A stretch of DNA of 64,000 nt from a virus (lineage: Duplodnaviria > Heunggongvirae > Uroviricota > Caudoviricetes). This document shows positions 6,468 through 26,460 of this stretch, piece by piece; position 1 is the first letter of the stretch, and every line of letters starts with the position of its first letter. The stretch is from IMG/VR virus record IMGVR_UViG_2648501802_000002; one strand, written 5' to 3'. A program made the translations under genes and the position numbers. The notes beneath the pieces were generated by a model. The model did no database searches and was not told the origin of the DNA. It saw nothing but the letters and a program-made list of their open reading frames with translations.

Positions 6468-9110
6468 TTATGCGTATTGTTGGATGACGGCCAGAACGTC
6501 CGCCACGTTGTGTTTTGTCTCGATAATCCACCAGTTACCCGGGAAATCGCTGTTCTTCGCCTTCGCTGGCAGCCAGCGAGCGCCGAATTTCGCCTTGATT
6601 GCGTCTTTCGCACGGAAAAGAACGCCTTTCATGCCTGAGGCTTCCTGAAGCCCAAATACCTCGCCAGCGGCGAATTTTGGTGCGTACATCATCTTCAGGT
6701 CGGCGGTGGATACGCGATAATTCAGACCTAGAGACTGAGCTATGCTGGTGGCATCACCCTGTATTGATGATAACTCTTCTTGTTTCTCGTTTCTGGCGGC
6801 AATCTCTTCCTCCGTGATGTTGCCAAGGGCCAGGTTTATCCGATCAGCGTCGGCCTGTTTCTCTTCATCGGTGCGCCCGGCAAGAACCGTGTTAATTCTC
6901 TGCAATATCTCCACATGATTCTTGCGCATGCTGAGCAATTCCGGCGTAACCTCGTTAAGATCCACCAGCCCAAGGATGGCAAGGTCGGAAAACATTGATA
7001 CCAGGTTGTAGGTCATGCGATAGCTGAGTTGACCATAGGCTGATGGCAACTTCACCGCATCCATTTGATAGGCATCCATAAATTTAGAGCCGTCGTTTAC
7101 GACATCCGCTATTGCAGGTGTGATTTTCCCTGTGGTGGCGGCCTCCCTGATTGCTGTTACCCACGATTGAGTCAGCGCGGCGACTGCATGATTCAGATTG
7201 GCTTCCCGTTCTGCTGCGATGCGCGCGCTTGCTGCGTCCATTGCCTGCTTGATCTCGGCTTTATTGCTGTAAATGCCAATGGTGCCAAACTGTGCTGTGG
7301 TGATCTCATAATCTGACGCCCGGAACTCATTGGTACCGAAAATGGCATTGGTGACTTCAAGTTCAGAATCCCCGTTACGAGTAGCCCCCTGGCTTGTTTT
7401 TTCCGGCATTCTGGCGATCGCATCCGCTATTTTCTCCTGAATTGCTTCAGGGGATAGCGTATCTCCGTATGACGCGATTACATCGCCATAATTGGAGCCA
7501 AACAATTCAACCAGGAATGTTTCTGCCGAACGGATCTGGCGGTTATTCCCTTCCGACATCATACCAAGCACCCATTTTGCAATTGACGACTTCAGCGCGA
7601 CGTCACGGCGATCCGGGTAAACCGCATGCTTCAGTGGGTCCGTATAGGTACCAACAAAATCAATGCTATAGCCTGACTCTGTAGTCTGAACGCCGTATGA
7701 GTCAGTGATTTTGATCATGCCGCGCTGCTGGAAACGGTAGAAATCGTCACAGGAAATGATGTCGTTAATCCCGGCGATGGAGACGCCGCCACTGATTTTC
7801 TGCATAACAGCATCTTCATCGGGAGTTACATCAACCTGTTTATCCAGCGTCTTCACATCCCAGTTACCCGATTTGGTACCTTTGAAGGTAAAGATAATCT
7901 CCACGTCTGCGCGCAGGCTGTCGAAGTCCAGCGACTTAATGCGAACGATATCACCGGCACAATCGTAGTATTGGCCTACACGCCATGAGCGATCGCCGAT
8001 AATAAGGAACTCACTCGCATGGTTAACCAGGTCAGGATCAACATCCAGAATGCCTTTATTTATTGCATCCTCCACCAGCGGGCGCAGGCGTTTGATATCC
8101 GTCGCGGCCTTCTGAGTACGGTTCAATAATTTCTCATAGCGGGAGATGGCTTGAGAGATATTAGCCTTGCGCTGAATGGCGCTTTTCAACGACGCGCGAT
8201 ACTGTGCTAACAACGTACGGTCTGTGTGATGGACGCTACCCCAGCGGGCTTTCCAGTCTGCGTTATCAGCTGCTTTGGCCATTACCGCCTGTTTGAATTT
8301 GGCGACGTCGGCGGTGGTCTTTTCAAGTTCCGCTTTGCTTCGCTCTAATTCAGCGGTAAGCACCTCCACATCCTCACCAGCTGCGTGCTGCGCCTTGATG
8401 TAGTTCTGAAGGTCGATAGTAGCCTGTTCTTTCTGGCGAGCGCGTTGCGCGGCTTTCGCCTTATCCATTTGAACCTGCATCATTGCCAGACGTTCGCCAT
8501 CATCCTTAGCGGTATACATCTGCATTTCGATCATATCGTTGGCGTCGGCGTTCTCCATTTCTGACTTATCTGAACGGAGGATATCGGAGATCCAACCTGC
8601 TTTACGCTTCAGCGTCTTCAGTCGGTATTCATCGAAAGAACCCTTGCCGCAGTAGTAGTGAACGCGAACGCTTGCACGGTTGGAACCAACTCGGGCACCG
8701 CGACCGTTACGCTGTGCGATACTGGCTGGTGTCCATGGCAACGTCAGATGATGGATGTCAGTCGTTCCTCGATGCAGGTTGATACCCACCTCTGCCTTTT
8801 TGTTGCAGATGATGATCGGAGTCCGGCCCTCCTGGAAGTCGGCTGCAATCTTTTCCAGACCGCCCAACGACATTTCATTTTGCTGCGCGATATAGGCGTC
8901 ATACAGAGCTATTTGCTCGTTGTATTTCGCTATCTGTGCATCTGTTGGTTCATCCGGTAACTCTTTCGGCGGTTTAACCGCTTTCAGTTTCTTACCGGTT
9001 TTACCTGCCTCGGCAACCGTCTGAGCATTCAGGATCCCCACCTTTGAAGGTTCAAGGTTAAGAGCATTGCAGATAATGCGCTTGAGCTTCTGGTGTTGCG
9101 TTTTTTTCAT
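6468..9110 (-). CDS. darB: DarB-like protein, C-terminal piece: helicase C-terminal domain and long tail
   Basis: 880-aa ORF with helicase motif VI-like segment (HHLTLPWTPASIAQRNGRGARVG); contiguous with the two upstream pieces if two single-base indels are corrected. Confidence 0.6.
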   Translation of the reverse strand: MKKTQHQKLKRIICNALNLEPSKVGILNAQTVAEAGKTGKKLKAVKPPKELPDEPTDAQIAKYNEQIALYDAYIAQQNEMSLGGLEKIAADFQEGRTPIIICNKKAEVGINLHRGTTDIHHLTLPWTPASIAQRNGRGARVGSNRASVRVHYYCGKGSFDEYRLKTLKRKAGWISDILRSDKSEMENADANDMIEMQMYTAKDDGERLAMMQVQMDKAKAAQRARQKEQATIDLQNYIKAQHAAGEDVEVLTAELERSKAELEKTTADVAKFKQAVMAKAADNADWKARWGSVHHTDRTLLAQYRASLKSAIQRKANISQAISRYEKLLNRTQKAATDIKRLRPLVEDAINKGILDVDPDLVNHASEFLIIGDRSWRVGQYYDCAGDIVRIKSLDFDSLRADVEIIFTFKGTKSGNWDVKTLDKQVDVTPDEDAVMQKISGGVSIAGINDIISCDDFYRFQQRGMIKITDSYGVQTTESGYSIDFVGTYTDPLKHAVYPDRRDVALKSSIAKWVLGMMSEGNNRQIRSAETFLVELFGSNYGDVIASYGDTLSPEAIQEKIADAIARMPEKTSQGATRNGDSELEVTNAIFGTNEFRASDYEITTAQFGTIGIYSNKAEIKQAMDAASARIAAEREANLNHAVAALTQSWVTAIREAATTGKITPAIADVVNDGSKFMDAYQMDAVKLPSAYGQLSYRMTYNLVSMFSDLAILGLVDLNEVTPELLSMRKNHVEILQRINTVLAGRTDEEKQADADRINLALGNITEEEIAARNEKQEELSSIQGDATSIAQSLGLNYRVSTADLKMMYAPKFAAGEVFGLQEASGMKGVLFRAKDAIKAKFGARWLPAKAKNSDFPGNWWIIETKHNVADVLAVIQQYA

Positions 9111-9657
9111 CGGTGAAGATGATTTGCTTACCTTCTGGGAAAAACTCCTTCAGCGTGGCAATCAGCTTCGCGTATTTGGGCGTAACGGGGTGAGTTACGG
9201 TCTGTTCGTCAATGCCAAACTTGGCCAGGCGCTTATTCACTTCCTGCTCAAATGCTTCCGGTACCTGCAACTGAATAAACTCGCCCTTATCTATCAGGGA
9301 GTATTGCGATTGCTGCGTGATTGAATCATCACTGTCGTCGTCTTCGCTGGTGGCTTGTTTGGGCAAACTGTCCGCCAGCTGCTGCACCGCATCGGCGTAC
9401 TCCGGCAGGAAACGATAGGTGATCCGGCGATAGTACAGGTCCATGTCAGTACATACGCGGTCCATATCCCTGATTATTGAGAAGATCGGACGGGCTTTCT
9501 CGTGCTCAATCACGCCGTCTTCATTGACCGAGGTCATTACGCCATTGTTGGCTTTGGCCGCCGCTTCCGCCTGCTGACGCAATTCTTCATACGCCGCCAG
9601 TTGTTCTTCAGTAAGTGGTGCATCCTGCTGGTGTTCGTCCAGCTCCGGGATCTCCAC
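9058..9657 (-). CDS. darB: DarB-like protein, middle piece (linker into helicase C-terminal domain)
   Basis: 199-aa ORF; open frame extends upstream to about 9738; ends ...KQIIFTDEK at a T7/A7 run (9101-9107) where the frame switches into the downstream piece. Confidence 0.45.
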   Translation of the reverse strand: MEIPELDEHQQDAPLTEEQLAAYEELRQQAEAAAKANNGVMTSVNEDGVIEHEKARPIFSIIRDMDRVCTDMDLYYRRITYRFLPEYADAVQQLADSLPKQATSEDDDSDDSITQQSQYSLIDKGEFIQLQVPEAFEQEVNKRLAKFGIDEQTVTHPVTPKYAKLIATLKEFFPEGKQIIFTDEKNATPEAQAHYLQCS

Positions 9658-9721
9658 GGTATCCTTAACGTCTTCCGCCGTTTTAAGCGTTACCCAGCGA
9701 TGGAATATACCGCGCAGCGCA

Positions 9722-11287
9722 TCAACCCGACAATTTCGCTATAGGACCGCGACCAGGATTACCAAAGCGGTCAATCTCTGCCTGCAAACGGGATACCAGA
9801 GAAAGGCGCTGCTGTTCGATTTGTTCAGCACTATGCCCGGCGGCCTTCATATCCTGATATTCAATTAACATCCGGCCAATCATCGCCCCGCGATACAAGC
9901 GTTCACGGTATTTTTCAGGCTGGCTGTTAATCCAGTCCACCAGCTGCACCATATCGTCGCTGATTGATGTGGTGTACTTATCGCGGACATTTGCCATCTG
10001 GGTAAATGTCATGCCGAGACGGCCTTCTGTTGTAGTCAGGTTACGCTGAAGAGCCTCCCAGCTATCCGCGCCATAACTGGCAGCATCGATCTTAAGTTCC
10101 TTCCCGGCATCAGCTTCAATCCAGCGACCACCAGCATATTTTTGCCATACGCCATTAATCAGGCGCATTTCCCCTTCACCAACAACGTCTGCGGTCGGTG
10201 ACGGTTCAGCCATATCGAGCAAAGACCAGTCGATACGGCTTTCGAAACGATGAATCAGCTTCGCTTTAAGAGCCTGGTTATCAATCTGACCGTCGGCACG
10301 AACCTCAATACGCCCCTGGAAGCCCTTTTCCTGGGTGCCATGAACAAACCGGCGGCCATCCTTTTCAAACCACTTGCCAGAAATAAACGTTGGCCAAAGC
10401 ACATTTGCCGATTCAAGAGTGCTTTCATCCACCAGGGGGATTTTCTCAGCCATCTCTGCCGGATGTTTGCGCATCAGCACCACATCAACGACTGTACTGG
10501 TCCCGTTTGCGTCAAAAGTACCGGTAGGCAAGCGGTGAGCGCCAAGAAATTCAGCTTTACGGGATAAGCGCAGGCGTAACCGCTTCATGTTTGAACCTGA
10601 AACAATGGACGGCGGCACAATCACGCACATGAATCCGCCTGGCTTTATCTTGTCCAGCATGCGGAGCATGAAGTAAGAACCCATGTCCGTTTCTTCTGCG
10701 TAAGGCTTATCGATGTTGCGTGTGTTATCACGACCGCCGAACGGAACGTTACCCACAACATGGTCGAATGAATCGTTAGGCGTGCTTATAGCCAGCTGTT
10801 CGAACGGGGAAATCTGTACGCTGTCTTCCGGGTGTAACAACTGGTTTATACGACCGGAAACACTGCTGATCTCAGTCGCGGTCATCACCGTACCAACCGG
10901 TTTTGTCTCATTAAAAACGCCGGTTCCCGCCGATGGTTCCAGAGTGTTACCTACGTCCGCGCCGTAGAGCTTCATGATCTCCCAGACACCTTCAGCGATC
11001 GGCTTTGGTGTGTAATATTCGGAGACGGACCCGCCAATGCCGCCTTCACCGGTGTACCCAGCCAGGATCTGGCGCTGTTCATCTGTCAGTGTCGCGCCGT
11101 CCACCAGCGAATTAAGCAAATCTATCGCCTTCTGATTCGCCTCCCGGCGCAGTCGGTCATAGCTTTTGCCTTCCACCTTTTCCACGCCGTATTTAATCGG
11201 CGCTCGGTGAGATGTTATTGCCCTAATGTATTTCAATATTTCGCTGACACTTGAACAGCAAAACACCCCCATAAATAGCTTGTTCAT
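9722..11287 (-). CDS. darB: DarB-like protein, N-terminal piece: N6-adenine DNA methyltransferase domain
   Basis: 521-aa ORF with amino-MTase motifs (YYTPKPIAEGVWEIM; VVGNVPFGG); reading frame continues into the next piece after a 1-nt shift near 9722-9738. Confidence 0.6.
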   Translation of the reverse strand: MNKLFMGVFCCSSVSEILKYIRAITSHRAPIKYGVEKVEGKSYDRLRREANQKAIDLLNSLVDGATLTDEQRQILAGYTGEGGIGGSVSEYYTPKPIAEGVWEIMKLYGADVGNTLEPSAGTGVFNETKPVGTVMTATEISSVSGRINQLLHPEDSVQISPFEQLAISTPNDSFDHVVGNVPFGGRDNTRNIDKPYAEETDMGSYFMLRMLDKIKPGGFMCVIVPPSIVSGSNMKRLRLRLSRKAEFLGAHRLPTGTFDANGTSTVVDVVLMRKHPAEMAEKIPLVDESTLESANVLWPTFISGKWFEKDGRRFVHGTQEKGFQGRIEVRADGQIDNQALKAKLIHRFESRIDWSLLDMAEPSPTADVVGEGEMRLINGVWQKYAGGRWIEADAGKELKIDAASYGADSWEALQRNLTTTEGRLGMTFTQMANVRDKYTTSISDDMVQLVDWINSQPEKYRERLYRGAMIGRMLIEYQDMKAAGHSAEQIEQQRLSLVSRLQAEIDRFGNPGRGPIAKLSG

Positions 11288-11353
11288 TGGTAATCCTTAA
11301 CAAGTGACTAGTGTTAAATTCCGTTCAAACACGATGCGAATTATTCTAATTAA

Positions 11354-13084
<1,731 letters not shown>

Positions 13085-14340
13085 ACGGCAAACATTCCCA
13101 ATTCACAGAGTCCGACCTAAACCACATGAAGCGGCTTAGGAATTACAGACTCTCCAAGGGCTAACACTGCCAGCCCGGCAGCTTTTATATTACGGGCCGC
13201 GTTAATATCACGATCATGCTCTGCGCCACATTCCGGGCAGTGCCATTTACGAATATTAAGAGGCATTTTTTGCATGGTGAAGCCGCAACTGCTGCAACGT
13301 TTGGAAGAAGGGAAATACTGGTCGATAGCGACAATGCTACGTCCACCCCATTCTCCTTTGTACTGGAGTTGGCGTACAAGTTCGCTCCAGCCTGCGTCAG
13401 CTATTGCTTTAGACAGCTTCGGGTTACGGATCATGTTTTTCACTTTAAGGGATTCGACGCAAACAACTTGGTTTTCGTTAATCAGTTTGCGGGACAACTT
13501 ATGCAGGTTATCCATCCGACAATCGACTATTCTCGCGTGGAGGCGGGCAACCTTTAAACGTGCTTTGGCGCGGTTCTTTGAGCCTTTTTGTTTCTTGCTC
13601 AATCTGCGCTGTAACACTGCTAATCGCTTCGCGTATTTAGCGTTGTGTCGAGGATTGCCAGTTTTAAAACCGGTATCGGTGACGAACAAATCTTTTAAAC
13701 CAATATCAATGCCGACCGTGGAAACGGTGATCGGCAGTGATACAGGCTCAAACTCGCAGAGACAGGATACAAAATATCGTCCGGCAGCATCCCTGGTGAT
13801 AGTGACAGTGGATGGAGCAGACGGCAACGGACGGCTCCAGCGAACATCTAACGGCTCTTTGCTCTTTGCCATGTACAGCTTGCCGTCACGGTATTTAAAT
13901 GCGCTGGCAGTTAGTTCTGCGGCCTGTTTATGCCGCTTGCTCTTAAAAACTGGGTATGCAGCACGCCCGGCGAAAAAGTTAGCAAAAGCCGTTTGTTGGT
14001 GGCGCAGAGACTGCTGGAGGGGGACGCAGGAAACGTCATTCAGCCAAGCGAATTCTGGTTCTTTTTTCAGTGCCGTTAATTTGGCGCTGGCTTGTGCATA
14101 GCCGACCCTCTCATGGCGTGCGTAGTACGCATCGGTGCGCCAGCGAAGGAGGCTGTTATAGACAAAACGCACACACCCAAAAGTCCGGGCTAATAGCTCG
14201 GTTTGTTCGGGAGTTGGATAGAATCGATATTTATAGGCACGCTTCATGTTCTATATAATACATTGAAACTAATGAGTATATAAATGAATACACGGACGAA
14301 AATGTTATCAAAGCCAATATACCAACAGACATTAGGTAAG
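13085..14340 (-). mobile_element. IS200/IS605-family insertion sequence (tnpB-only, IS1341-like); ends approximate
   Basis: Single TnpB ORF without tnpA, inserted between the prt-like and pro-like genes; element boundaries not mapped, taken as the flanking intergenic space. Confidence 0.4.
13117..14247 (-). CDS. tnpB: TnpB (IS200/IS605 OrfB) RuvC-like RNA-guided endonuclease
   Basis: 376-aa ORF; N-terminus MKRAYKYRFYPTPEQ typical of OrfB; C-terminal zinc finger CSSCGF...CPECGAEHDRDINAARNI. Confidence 0.8.
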   Translation of the reverse strand: MKRAYKYRFYPTPEQTELLARTFGCVRFVYNSLLRWRTDAYYARHERVGYAQASAKLTALKKEPEFAWLNDVSCVPLQQSLRHQQTAFANFFAGRAAYPVFKSKRHKQAAELTASAFKYRDGKLYMAKSKEPLDVRWSRPLPSAPSTVTITRDAAGRYFVSCLCEFEPVSLPITVSTVGIDIGLKDLFVTDTGFKTGNPRHNAKYAKRLAVLQRRLSKKQKGSKNRAKARLKVARLHARIVDCRMDNLHKLSRKLINENQVVCVESLKVKNMIRNPKLSKAIADAGWSELVRQLQYKGEWGGRSIVAIDQYFPSSKRCSSCGFTMQKMPLNIRKWHCPECGAEHDRDINAARNIKAAGLAVLALGESVIPKPLHVV

Positions 14341-14359
14341 GTAGCTGGAGGGCAATATA

Positions 14360-15379
14360 ATGACTGATGTTTTGAAAACGGTCACTGACCGCTTTTGTCT
14401 CTATAGCAATGCTCGAAAAGGTCGCCAGAACGGGCGACAGTATGTATTAAGCGCGGTTAAGACCATGCTTGAAAGCAAGGAAACTCAGGAAGGTTTACGC
14501 CTTGGAGAGCTTTTCGGCTATTACGGTCACGGTCGCCGACAGCTGACCGGCAAACTGGAAGTACCAGAAACCAGCGTAATCATGGTGGAAGGTCGCCCGG
14601 TCGTAATCGACAATGTTCCAGCGTGCCGCACAGTGGCTATATCCGTTGACGACAACGGCATCGTTACCCATACACAGGAAATTCTTAACACAGAGCCGGG
14701 TAAAATTGTCGCCGCGATGATCGAAAGCCGAGCTGGTGGCTGGAGCTGGGCCACTGGCGGGCGTGAGTCCGGGAAAATCGCTGTAACCACCAGCTTCCAT
14801 GGTGTGGATTATGTGACAACGCCGAACTATATCAGTCTGGATCATCCTGCCAGCGCCGGAATGTTTGAAAGCGCGGATTCTAAATCTTTACTGGCAGAGT
14901 CCCTGGCGGCGCATGGGTACTCCGACGAGTCAGTGCAGGCCGTTATATCCCATTACGGCAAAATGGCTGAACTGGAAATGATGGTGGAGGCGACAGAGCG
15001 TACGGCAGAACTGGAAACTGCACTACTCGAAAGCCAGGGCCGCCACCTCGAAGCAATGGCCAAGATCGCAGATGCTGAAGCGCGAATCGCTTTGCTGGAG
15101 GAAACAGCGGGTATCCGCGACGATGTGCTGGCAGCAATGCAAGACGAACTGGATAACCTCCCGATCTTCGTCTCCGCCGCCCAAAAAGACGCATTCCGCC
15201 TCAAAGAACCTGGTGATGCAAAAATCGTTGCCACACTTTTCGAATCTCTGATCAAAGTTGGCGCACGCAACTTGCCTGTCACCAAGAAAATTAAGGAGGT
15301 TCCGCAAGCGGCTAACGTCCAGGCACCGCGTGAGACAAGCATCATCACGTTTAATAATTCAATCAATCCGTTTAAATAA
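14360..15379 (+). CDS. pro: Head-processing protease/scaffold-like protein (pro-like by position)
   Basis: 339-aa ORF; globular N-terminal half followed by helical acidic C-terminal half; position after prt as in P1. Confidence 0.35.
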   Translation: MTDVLKTVTDRFCLYSNARKGRQNGRQYVLSAVKTMLESKETQEGLRLGELFGYYGHGRRQLTGKLEVPETSVIMVEGRPVVIDNVPACRTVAISVDDNGIVTHTQEILNTEPGKIVAAMIESRAGGWSWATGGRESGKIAVTTSFHGVDYVTTPNYISLDHPASAGMFESADSKSLLAESLAAHGYSDESVQAVISHYGKMAELEMMVEATERTAELETALLESQGRHLEAMAKIADAEARIALLEETAGIRDDVLAAMQDELDNLPIFVSAAQKDAFRLKEPGDAKIVATLFESLIKVGARNLPVTKKIKEVPQAANVQAPRETSIITFNNSINPFK

Positions 15380-16880: not shown

Positions 16881-17077
16881 ATGTGTAAAAAACGACTGAA
16901 AGAAAAGCGGTGGTCCAAACGCCAACAAAAGCACGAACTCGCTAAAAAACGCCAAAGTTGGCAATGGCACGCGCTTTTCACGAAAAGAACACCCCGAGAT
17001 ATTGCTTTCGCTGGTGGGAAAACATTCCTGACCCACCTGAAGGCGCAATACATCAGGTTTTAAGCAGAGGAAAGACT

Positions 17078-17755
17078 ATGAATAACATGACAACGAAAGA
17101 GCTTTTGACGGCACTTCCAAAATACAAAAGCCATAAAACAGTTCGTGCCTCAAAAATCAAAGATATCGAAATTATCGCCCTAATGGATGTGGTCCTTCTT
17201 TGCAACATCGAAGTCGTTGAGCCAGAAGGGGTAAAAGTCCATGTTGATAAAATGTTTTTGCAAAAACACCGACCAGAAATTGGCGGATATCTGGTCGCTT
17301 ACGAGGACGGATCTCTGTCCTATTCACCAGAAAAAACATTTGAAGAAGGCTTTAGTCGGACTAACGACTTCTTCGAAAATGGGGTATCGCTCAGCATTGA
17401 AGGTCACAACGGGGTGACATTCATTACAGCCAAGGACGTAACTATTTCTGCTGGCGGTATCGCTACTCTACAAGAAGAAATCGACCTTGAAGCAGCCGAC
17501 TTTTCTGACGCGCTGATGTGGCTGAAGGATGGCAAGAAAGTTGCTCGACGCGGGTGGAACGGCGAAAACCAATTCTGCTGGCTGGTTCCTGAAGGACAGT
17601 ACCCGGCACGAATGGAAGCCATTAAGGGATATTTCCCCGGCGACCTCGTTCCGTATGGTGCTTATTTCGCCTTAAAAAATGCACAAGGTGTAGTTGTTCC
17701 GTGGGTTCCTTCTGTAGGCGACTTACTGGCATGTGACTGGTTTGTAGTGGAGTGA
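17078..17755 (+). CDS. Two-domain phage protein with C-terminal DUF2829-like (Tad2-like) domain
   Basis: Start at ATG 17078 with AGAGGAAAG ribosome-binding site; C-terminal segment FSDALMWLKDGKKVARRGWNG...VVVPWVPSVGDLLACDWFVV fits the DUF2829 pattern as I remember it. Confidence 0.5.
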   Translation: MNNMTTKELLTALPKYKSHKTVRASKIKDIEIIALMDVVLLCNIEVVEPEGVKVHVDKMFLQKHRPEIGGYLVAYEDGSLSYSPEKTFEEGFSRTNDFFENGVSLSIEGHNGVTFITAKDVTISAGGIATLQEEIDLEAADFSDALMWLKDGKKVARRGWNGENQFCWLVPEGQYPARMEAIKGYFPGDLVPYGAYFALKNAQGVVVPWVPSVGDLLACDWFVVE

Positions 17756-25620: not shown

Positions 25621-26460
25621 GTGCGCCCAGCATGGGCGCGATCTTGGAGGTGAAAGCCCTCCCGCGAGCTGACCACAGCGAGCGAAAGGAAGTGCAACTG
25701 CGTGAGGGCGGCTAGGCGTGGGGAGGAAGCACGGAATGAACCCGTGAGCCGATGAACAAGAATCGGATATGAGGCGCGATGGAGCAAGGCGAGCAGGCAC
25801 ATCACTGCGAAGCTTTCGTGACAAAGTCGCGTAGATCCGACGGTTGTGCGGGGAAGGATCGCGTTCTTACCTGGGGAGTTCTCGCCTCATGCCTGAAAGG
25901 GCAACGTCGTAAGACGGAGCGAGAAGTCAGCAGAGGCCGTAGTAGTCAGGACTCCGACGAAGGGCCGAACGAGAAGGAAAGCCAAAAGATATGACTCTTG
26001 ACAGGACATTGCGTCAGAAGCCGGGGAAGCCCGGTACGGACCCGCATGCCGGGTGGTGTGGCAGGGGCGCAGCCTTGTGCTCCCCCCTATGCCGATCAAG
26101 CAGAACATTGTGCTGGGCCTCTGACGCATCTCCTTGATGGTCTTGGCATCGTGCTTAAGTGGATTGGTGTCGTCTCTGATAGGCTCATGGAGGCAGAATG
26201 AAACTCAAAAATCCGGGACAGCACGCAAAACAGGCTGCACAAAAAGCGCAGGTTGCGTAGGAGTGGAATCCCGCTCCCAAAAAATGGTGCAGAAGTTGCG
26301 GCAGTGGTCATCCGACGCACTGGAAAATAACAAACCCGCCGTGACCAGAATCGGAGGCCTGAGGGAGTGACCGTAAAACCGGATAACCCAGGCAGCAAAT
26401 ACCCGCTGGATGAGGCATGGTTCCGGCAGATAATACCGAAAACCGCCAGACACACTGGAT
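25621..26460 (+). mobile_element. Group II intron 5' fragment (domains I-III-like RNA, no intact maturase ORF); 3' boundary approximate
   Basis: Starts GTGCGCCCAGCATGGGCG (compare Ll.LtrB GTGCGCCCAGATAGGGTG); shares motifs GCGAAAG, AATCGG, GTCGC and CGTAGTAGTC...GAAGGG with LtrB domains I-III; GNRA-rich; only short ORFs on either strand. Confidence 0.5.

Follow-up and report, generated by a model that had tools for sequence, protein, structure and literature searches.

Why would a P1-type phage-plasmid carry a tnpB gene that runs against the portal gene prt and the head-processing gene pro on either side of it, with no tnpA gene to mobilize it? The gene lies within a 64-kb stretch of DNA (hereafter the window). 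A preliminary description had read the locus as a tnpB-only element of the IS200/IS605 family, without tnpA, whose 376-aa TnpB carries RuvC and zinc-finger motifs and lies antisense between prt-like and pro-like genes. Pfam and NCBIfam matches, the catalytic and cysteine residues described below and the failure to find a Y1 TnpA anywhere in the 64 kb bore out this reading, and the gene order was as described, with prt at 11363-13084 and pro at 14360-15379 (both plus strand). The limits had been placed at 13085-14340, which is 20 nt short on either side. The match of the window to P1 runs to 13064 and resumes at 14360; this alignment with the empty P1 site, together with a right end shared across the family, sets the element at 13065-14359 on the minus strand. 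It is a non-autonomous IS200/IS605-family element of 1295 bp, with its left end on the 14359 side, its right end on the 13065 side and no target duplication. In uninterrupted P1, prt and pro overlap, reading AAC GAT A before the insertion point and ATG ACT GA after it, so that the empty site can be written as GGGAAACGATA followed by ATGACTG. The right-end terminus GTCAA, which fixes the right limit of the element, was common to 39/39 aligned relatives, and the relatives ranged in size from 1284 to 1329 bp.

The element is a tnpB-only (IS1341-type), degenerate member of the known IS200/IS605 family. It encodes a split RuvC D-E-D triad and a CxxC..CxxC zinc finger, has a subterminal hairpin in its right end and a guide RNA over the tnpB 3′ end and right end, and is inserted 3′ of a specific tetranucleotide without target-site duplication, as judged from the empty-site comparison and 42 TCAT loci. 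A further hallmark of IS1341-type elements, a subterminal hairpin in the left end, was absent from the window copy. Because this hairpin is present in the left ends of relatives, we regard the window copy as a degenerate member and not as a separate family. By sequence, the element belongs to the GipA/ISEc42-like group and is kin to gipA of Gifsy-1: its TnpB is 84.5% identical to Gifsy-1 GipA at the amino acid level (about 80% in DNA), and one phage record gives the element the label ISEc42-like. The gene already bears the label TnpB in RefSeq, and the element itself is of a known kind.

We assigned tnpB (13117-14247, minus strand, 376 aa) from the list of open reading frames, from domain models and from alignment with ISDra2 TnpB. 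The protein matched PF12323 (HTH_OrfB_IS605), PF01385 (OrfB_IS605) and PF07282 (Cas12f1-like_TNB) above the Pfam cut-offs, and passed the NCBIfam model NF040570 (guided_TnpB) with 358 bits against a cut-off of 100. The exception-level model NF038281 (IS200_TnpB) gave 393.7 bits, below its curated cut-off of 425, and models of the type V CRISPR effectors Cas12f and C2c8 gave 89 and 45 bits, below cut-offs of 350 and 450. The closest solved relative was ISDra2 TnpB (8bf8, 8ex9 and 8h1j; E 6.6e-77). Catalytic residues D181, E265 and D347 aligned residue by residue with D191, E278 and D361 of that protein (8bf8), and the zinc finger comprises the two CxxC pairs C318/C321 and C337/C340. In a search of 5.8 billion proteins, the nearest TnpB outside P1-type replicons was 88% identical, and the window lineage differs from every other by 12% or more in protein sequence. 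Comparison with eight relatives gave a dN/dS of 0.08-0.12 at a dS of 0.6-1.2, which points to purifying selection on tnpB. A consensus scan picked out a promoter-like site facing tnpB (TTTATA-18-TATTAT, 14255-14284, minus strand) and an outward one toward pro (TTTATA-18-TATAAT, 14230-14259, plus strand); both calls are weak, because such sites were no more numerous than in shuffled sequence. In the window (14245-14284), the -10 box of the inward site stops only about 8 nt short of the tnpB start codon, which itself lacks a preceding Shine-Dalgarno motif. The left-end alignments of relatives have the same layout, suggestive of a tnpB mRNA without a leader.

No Y1 TnpA was found in the 64-kb window, either by tblastn with three TnpA sequences (IS200C, Paenibacillus and archaeal) or with an HMM built from the same three and run against 771 six-frame ORF segments. 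The preliminary description had named an adjacent tnpA as one observation that would contradict it; with all 64 kb covered, none lies within or beside the element, which is thus not an autonomous IS605 element with both tnpA and tnpB. The distance from the left end to the tnpB ATG, only 112 nt, leaves no room for one. In a sister plasmid, NZ_CP033882, an IS200C (tnpA only) lies between lyz and pro (locus L083, 7959-8417), 1.2 kb from a tnpB insert identical to that of the window; this IS200C is a separate IS that the window does not have.

Does the element still encode a guide RNA? From an alignment of the final 175 nt in 39 family members, RNAalifold returned 33 base pairs in seven helices, with compensatory changes in 19 of the 33. 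The share of paired cells was 96%, against 85% in shuffles (0 of 500 as high) and 36-46% when partners were slid. This covariation places the guide-RNA (omega RNA) scaffold at approximately 13065-13182 on the minus strand, overlapping the 3′ end of tnpB and the right end; a long-range 3-bp helix would stretch it to 13209. The fold of the window scaffold RNA had a z score of -3.4. A fold and covariance search at the tnpB 3′ end had been proposed beforehand as a check, and the compensatory pairs, set against both shuffle and slide controls, passed it. The origin of the guide RNA from the 3′ end of the element was upheld, but the range given for it (12950-13120) was shifted: only the guide of about 20 nt reaches into prt. 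We found no second copy of the guide RNA or of the left end within the window. No Rfam family matched the element above threshold; RAGATH-18 gave a weak match, its 21.8 bits falling below the gathering value of 44.9. In 14 related loci, Rfam gave nothing relevant save a weak HgcC match (30 bits against a gathering value of 50) in a Nonomuraea relative (L052, 2606-2730), where it falls on the 3′ end of tnpB; this hints that RNAs of the HgcC type may serve related TnpBs as guides.

The last stem of the guide RNA, helix 7 of the covariation model, is the terminal hairpin of the right end (TGTTTGCCG-TTTA-TGGCGGACA, 13073-13094, minus strand). Seven positions of the window copy depart from the consensus without the loss of a single pair, two pairs being kept by compensatory and two by wobble changes. 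This hairpin folds as single-stranded DNA with a z score of -2.2 and is presumed to be the TnpA-binding hairpin of the right end. In IS200/IS605 elements, the guide is the DNA directly 3′ of the right end. By this rule, the predicted guide is TATCGTTTCCCTCTTTAAAG (13045-13064, minus strand), taken from a flank that holds the last prt codons. The deduced TAM, TCAT (14360-14363, minus strand), reads on the plus strand as ATGA, that is, the pro start codon plus one base. With left-end boundaries called by HMM and the TAM deduced from insertion sites, the motif before the left end was TCAT in 42 loci (the window and 41 others), TTAT in 10 and TTAC in 9. The target tetranucleotide, which the preliminary description had left to be located, is TCAT by the empty-site comparison. 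Within the window, the only perfect match to the guide is its own template site, preceded by GTCAA and not by the TAM, and no other near-match with a TAM was found there. Because the right-end terminus GTCAA is one base away from GTCAT, the occupied allele lacks a TAM before the target. The TAM and 20-nt target were matched exactly by 63 empty-site contigs of IMG/VR.

The left end has fared differently. Together with the tnpB leader it spans 112 nt (14248-14359, minus strand), and its subterminal hairpin, the defining substrate of TnpA, has decayed. In relatives, the left end folds into a hairpin in which GCCTCC...GGAGGC encloses a GC-rich inner stem, and a T-run comes after it. The window left end folded as single-stranded DNA with only -2.5 kcal/mol (z = +0.95), and a left-end HMM run against the whole window returned no match at E <= 10. 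It is homologous to a Klebsiella type (locus L007), with which the 5′ arm is identical at 21/29 positions and the 3′ arm at about 6/23. Of the two end hairpins that had been expected, therefore, the right one was found (13073-13094) and the left one was not, having decayed. Outside P1-type replicons, we found no relative closer than 88% protein identity with an intact left end. Loss of the left-end hairpin alongside retention of tnpB and the guide RNA leads us to favour a TnpA-independent role in homing or in cutting competitors. We infer that TnpA-dependent mobility has been lost and that TnpB and its guide RNA are still under selection. Three contigs of 94-96 kb considered as P1-type carriers were rejected, being chromosomal or prophage contexts.

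What does the insertion do to its host? Sequence comparison identifies the host as a P1-type phage-plasmid: most of the window can be aligned collinearly with P1 at 94-98% identity, prt and pro are 98.2-98.5% identical in DNA to their P1 counterparts, and comparison with P1 revealed an exact copy of the late promoter LPpro (11302-11320, plus strand). Late transcripts from LPpro must traverse the element antisense to reach pro, which the insert has parted from prt. The right end supplies the last 20 nt of prt (13065-13084) and closes the gene in frame, so that the encoded C terminus changes from GNDND-stop to GNDIDNCPP-stop. The left end contributes a GGAGGG motif, read from the sequence (14347-14352, plus strand), at a distance of 7 nt before the pro ATG. 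This motif is likely to act as a replacement Shine-Dalgarno site and, unlike in relatives, it is free of hairpin in the host-sense RNA of the window. The suggestion that the insertion uncouples prt from pro was right in that the overlap ATGACTGA is split, but the in-frame closure of prt and the motif before the pro ATG point to an insertion built to be tolerated. The same description had spoken of a decaying island. Neither term is borne out, and 'island' is the wrong word: the window is collinear with P1, LPpro is kept, the same insert occurs in 35 complete E. coli replicons, and sister elements are likewise placed in Gifsy-1 and a Klebsiella phage.

Between 12900 and 14500, a scan of both strands picked out eight terminator-like hairpins, where shuffled sequence would be expected to yield 2.0. 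Seven of the eight are on the plus strand, the direction of late transcription toward pro, where they are weak; those inside the insert could lower pro expression. One terminator-like hairpin, at 13167-13181, is the antisense of a guide-RNA helix. Elsewhere in the window, darB (6468-11287) has an internal deletion of 1949 bp relative to P1 (junction 9725/9726; P1 13726-15674 missing) and is split into three ORFs; the gene is intact, at 6768 bp, in the sister plasmid NZ_CP033882. Two Rfam group II intron D1-D4 matches of 95.5 and 46.8 bits, above gathering, lie at 25702-25965 (plus strand), in a stretch missing from P1 1-50 kb. With hexapeptide acyltransferase and tail-fibre genes after it in place of a reverse-transcriptase ORF, the stretch resembles an intron fragment. 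Beside ssb, a gene for a 265-aa protein (16958-17755, plus strand) matched a Tad2-like (Thoeris anti-defence 2) domain at E 2e-22, and its region differs from P1 isaA.

We then asked how widely the insert is distributed. At 99% identity or more, it was present in 35 full and three truncated copies among 5426 E. coli genomes and in 3/3 IMG/VR contigs, every one at prt/pro, and the window element was found at no other site in either collection. The 35 full copies reside in complete E. coli replicons of 94-103 kb from varied sources, and identical stretches of 1.9 kb were found in E. coli plasmids of 94-103 kb. The only carrier record named as a phage, vB_EcoM-673R5, stems from a genome survey of phage-like plasmids. 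About 449 E. coli records or replicons had an empty prt/pro junction, to which the predicted guide and TAM correspond exactly; approximately 8% of P1-type replicons carry the insert and approximately 92% are without it. The flanks of the insert are common alleles of empty-site P1 relatives, and comparison with 38 empty-site loci revealed no co-conversion tract, so any homing left no visible scar. An old, diverged element with a dead left end in modern flanks fits spread or homogenisation by homologous recombination, not recent TnpA transposition; such a fit falls short of proof of homing. The copies at prt/pro were 98.8-100% identical, and their distribution could also be accounted for by descent alone in a single successful plasmid lineage.

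Comparison of the TCAT loci uncovered a pattern in the insertion sites. In 35/42 loci (30/36 unique sites), an ORF on the opposite strand starts at the ATG complementary to the TAM, counting ORFs of at least 68 aa that begin exactly there (relatives L004-L086 and L157). For four of these genes the annotated start falls on this ATG, namely pro (in the window and in P1), the gpU homologue of Gifsy-1, ybhB of CFT073 and the capsid gene of a Klebsiella phage from sewage. The called gene start of kdpD coincides as well, and there the insert splits the overlapping stop/start ATGAATAA. This last copy (L157; E. coli JAODPF010000020, 2892-4163) is a CFT073-type element with an identical left end, lying between kdpC and kdpD. 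With bioA/ybhB and kdpC/kdpD, the CFT073-type element occupies no fewer than two sites in E. coli and has accordingly been mobile. Reconstructed empty sites had a native ribosome-binding site in 20/31 cases, and upstream in-frame extensions were mostly short. In 50 kb of an annotated sister plasmid, start codons made up 3.5% of ATGA sites overall and 27% of start-codon and non-coding sites. The binomial P for 35/42 is accordingly about 2e-44 under random insertion and about 3e-14 under a model that tolerates non-coding sites alone, with loci that are not fully independent. TTAT and TTAC relatives lie off start codons, in intergenic DNA, often directly after terminator-like hairpins. A Shine-Dalgarno-like motif supplied by the left end at the right spacing was found in 24/31 TCAT elements against 0/11 TTAT/TTAC elements, and Halomonas-type TCAT elements are at start codons although they have no such motif. 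In host-sense RNA, the GGAGG of most relatives is paired within the left-end hairpin, very strongly so in Gifsy-1 (-58 kcal/mol).

Either insertion bias or survivorship could give rise to this pattern. The insertion-site rule for the TCAT class is possibly new: in the literature that we searched on TnpB, gipA and ISEc42, we found no description of start-codon targeting or of the P1 insert. If it reflects insertion bias or adaptation, it would be a new means by which a transposon avoids doing harm and would explain the presence of these elements in phage structural operons. We tentatively put forward a wider reading in which TCAT elements would be 'start-codon-seeking' ISs and the P1 copy would owe its survival solely to a role as an RNA-guided nuclease for homing or exclusion. 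The TAM, as the complement of ATGA, would bring the element to land antisense between the ribosome-binding site and the ATG, and the GGAGG built into most left ends would allow tight operons and phage late genes (prt/pro, gpZ/gpU, kdpC/kdpD and capsid) to be colonised without killing. The P1-type copy, lacking the TnpA substrate, would be left with a nuclease aimed at the approximately 92% of P1 relatives that are without the insert. We hold this combined reading as a possibility and no more firmly than that.

The explanation of the window copy that we consider probable is narrower: an old tnpB-only element in a P1-type phage-plasmid, immobile with respect to TnpA, that may persist by RNA-guided homing or by cutting competitors. 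TnpA would have lost the ability to move the element, and TnpB loaded with a guide RNA whose guide is TATCGTTTCCCTCTTTAAAG would cut the empty prt/pro junction of P1 relatives that share the cell. Repair of the break from the occupied copy would then copy the element in, a TnpA-independent form of homing; alternatively, the break may disable the competitor. The occupied allele would be spared, the TAM being absent before its guide match, and pro would still be translatable from the GGAGGG that the left end supplies 7 nt before its ATG. From its antisense orientation, we would expect expression of tnpB chiefly in the plasmid-prophage state, with LPpro silent. A recent review (PMC13565253) describes the spread of an IS605 insertion through a plasmid population, dependent on TnpB and independent of TnpA, and also discusses homing into co-infecting phages or plasmids, and restorative homing has been described elsewhere (10.1101/2023.03.14.532601).

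Several of the distribution data can be read in another way. Nearly identical copies at a single site, with no co-conversion signature and with an occupancy of about 8% of P1-type replicons that indicates no sweep, are also what an inert passenger would leave: one old TnpA insertion, tolerated at the pro start and riding one lineage, whose TnpB and guide RNA are inconsequential. Set against this is the selective nature of the decay, in which the left-end hairpin is gone while tnpB is intact (dN/dS about 0.1) and the hairpin shared by the right end and guide RNA is kept by compensatory substitutions. The predicted target is, moreover, perfectly conserved in the relatives that the element would meet, and on balance we regard an inert insertion as unlikely.

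Recent arrival by peel-and-paste is harder to reconcile with these data. If the odd left end still worked for a cognate TnpA elsewhere in the host, the element would be a non-autonomous IS that remains mobile, in keeping with the 4-5 copies of relatives in Serratia proteamaculans CBSDS_009, the three in Klebsiella MISC125, the occurrence of the same E. coli element at bioA/ybhB and kdpC/kdpD, and flanks that resemble modern P1. We judge this improbable, because the window element has no second site in 5426 E. coli genomes or IMG/VR, its left end has no hairpin at all as single-stranded DNA, and no relative closer than 88% turned up in 5.8 billion proteins. It is also conceivable that TnpB here acts as something other than a nuclease, either an RNA-guided repressor like TldR or a host-benefit factor like the 84.5% identical GipA, annotated as a virulence factor of Peyer's patches; phage-borne repressors derived from TnpB are known (PMC10705468). 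The intact RuvC triad and zinc finger, the full length of the protein and the lack of any other TAM-flanked near-match to the guide in the window make such domestication very improbable. This locus is a natural case in which a transposase substrate has decayed and the nuclease and its guide RNA have been conserved, with a guide that matches hundreds of related phage-plasmids. These features make TnpA-independent, RNA-guided homing or inter-phage competition directly testable in the well-developed P1 system.

The window element shares its main features with several known systems. ISDra2 of Deinococcus radiodurans has the same TnpB domain order and an aligned D-E-D triad and zinc finger (E 6.6e-77), a guide RNA (omega RNA or reRNA) over the tnpB 3′ end and right end, and insertion 3′ of a short motif without duplication; ISDra2, however, has tnpA and the TAM TTGAT, whereas the window element has neither tnpA nor a left-end hairpin and its deduced TAM is TCAT. 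Gifsy-1 gipA and the ISEc42-like elements of E. coli (CFT073 bioA/ybhB) are like it in the right-end terminus GTCAA, in the TAM TCAT and in their antisense placement, in which the left end directly adjoins the ATG that opens the following gene (gpU homologue, ybhB and kdpD), but they keep a strong left-end hairpin and T-run that the window copy has lost. TldRs, the nuclease-dead repressors of prophages, are likewise phage-borne TnpB relatives with a guide RNA; they lack RuvC catalytic residues or are truncated at the C terminus, whereas the window protein is complete and retains these residues. The free-standing homing endonuclease genes of T-even phages, and the 'transposon non-restorative homing' of TnpB (PMC13565253), offer a parallel in that conserved phage genes flank a nuclease gene, the nuclease is aimed at the uninterrupted allele in kin and the split site makes the occupied allele immune. 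Unlike in T-even phages, recognition by the window element would be RNA-guided, with a guide copied from the flank, and its homing is a proposal.
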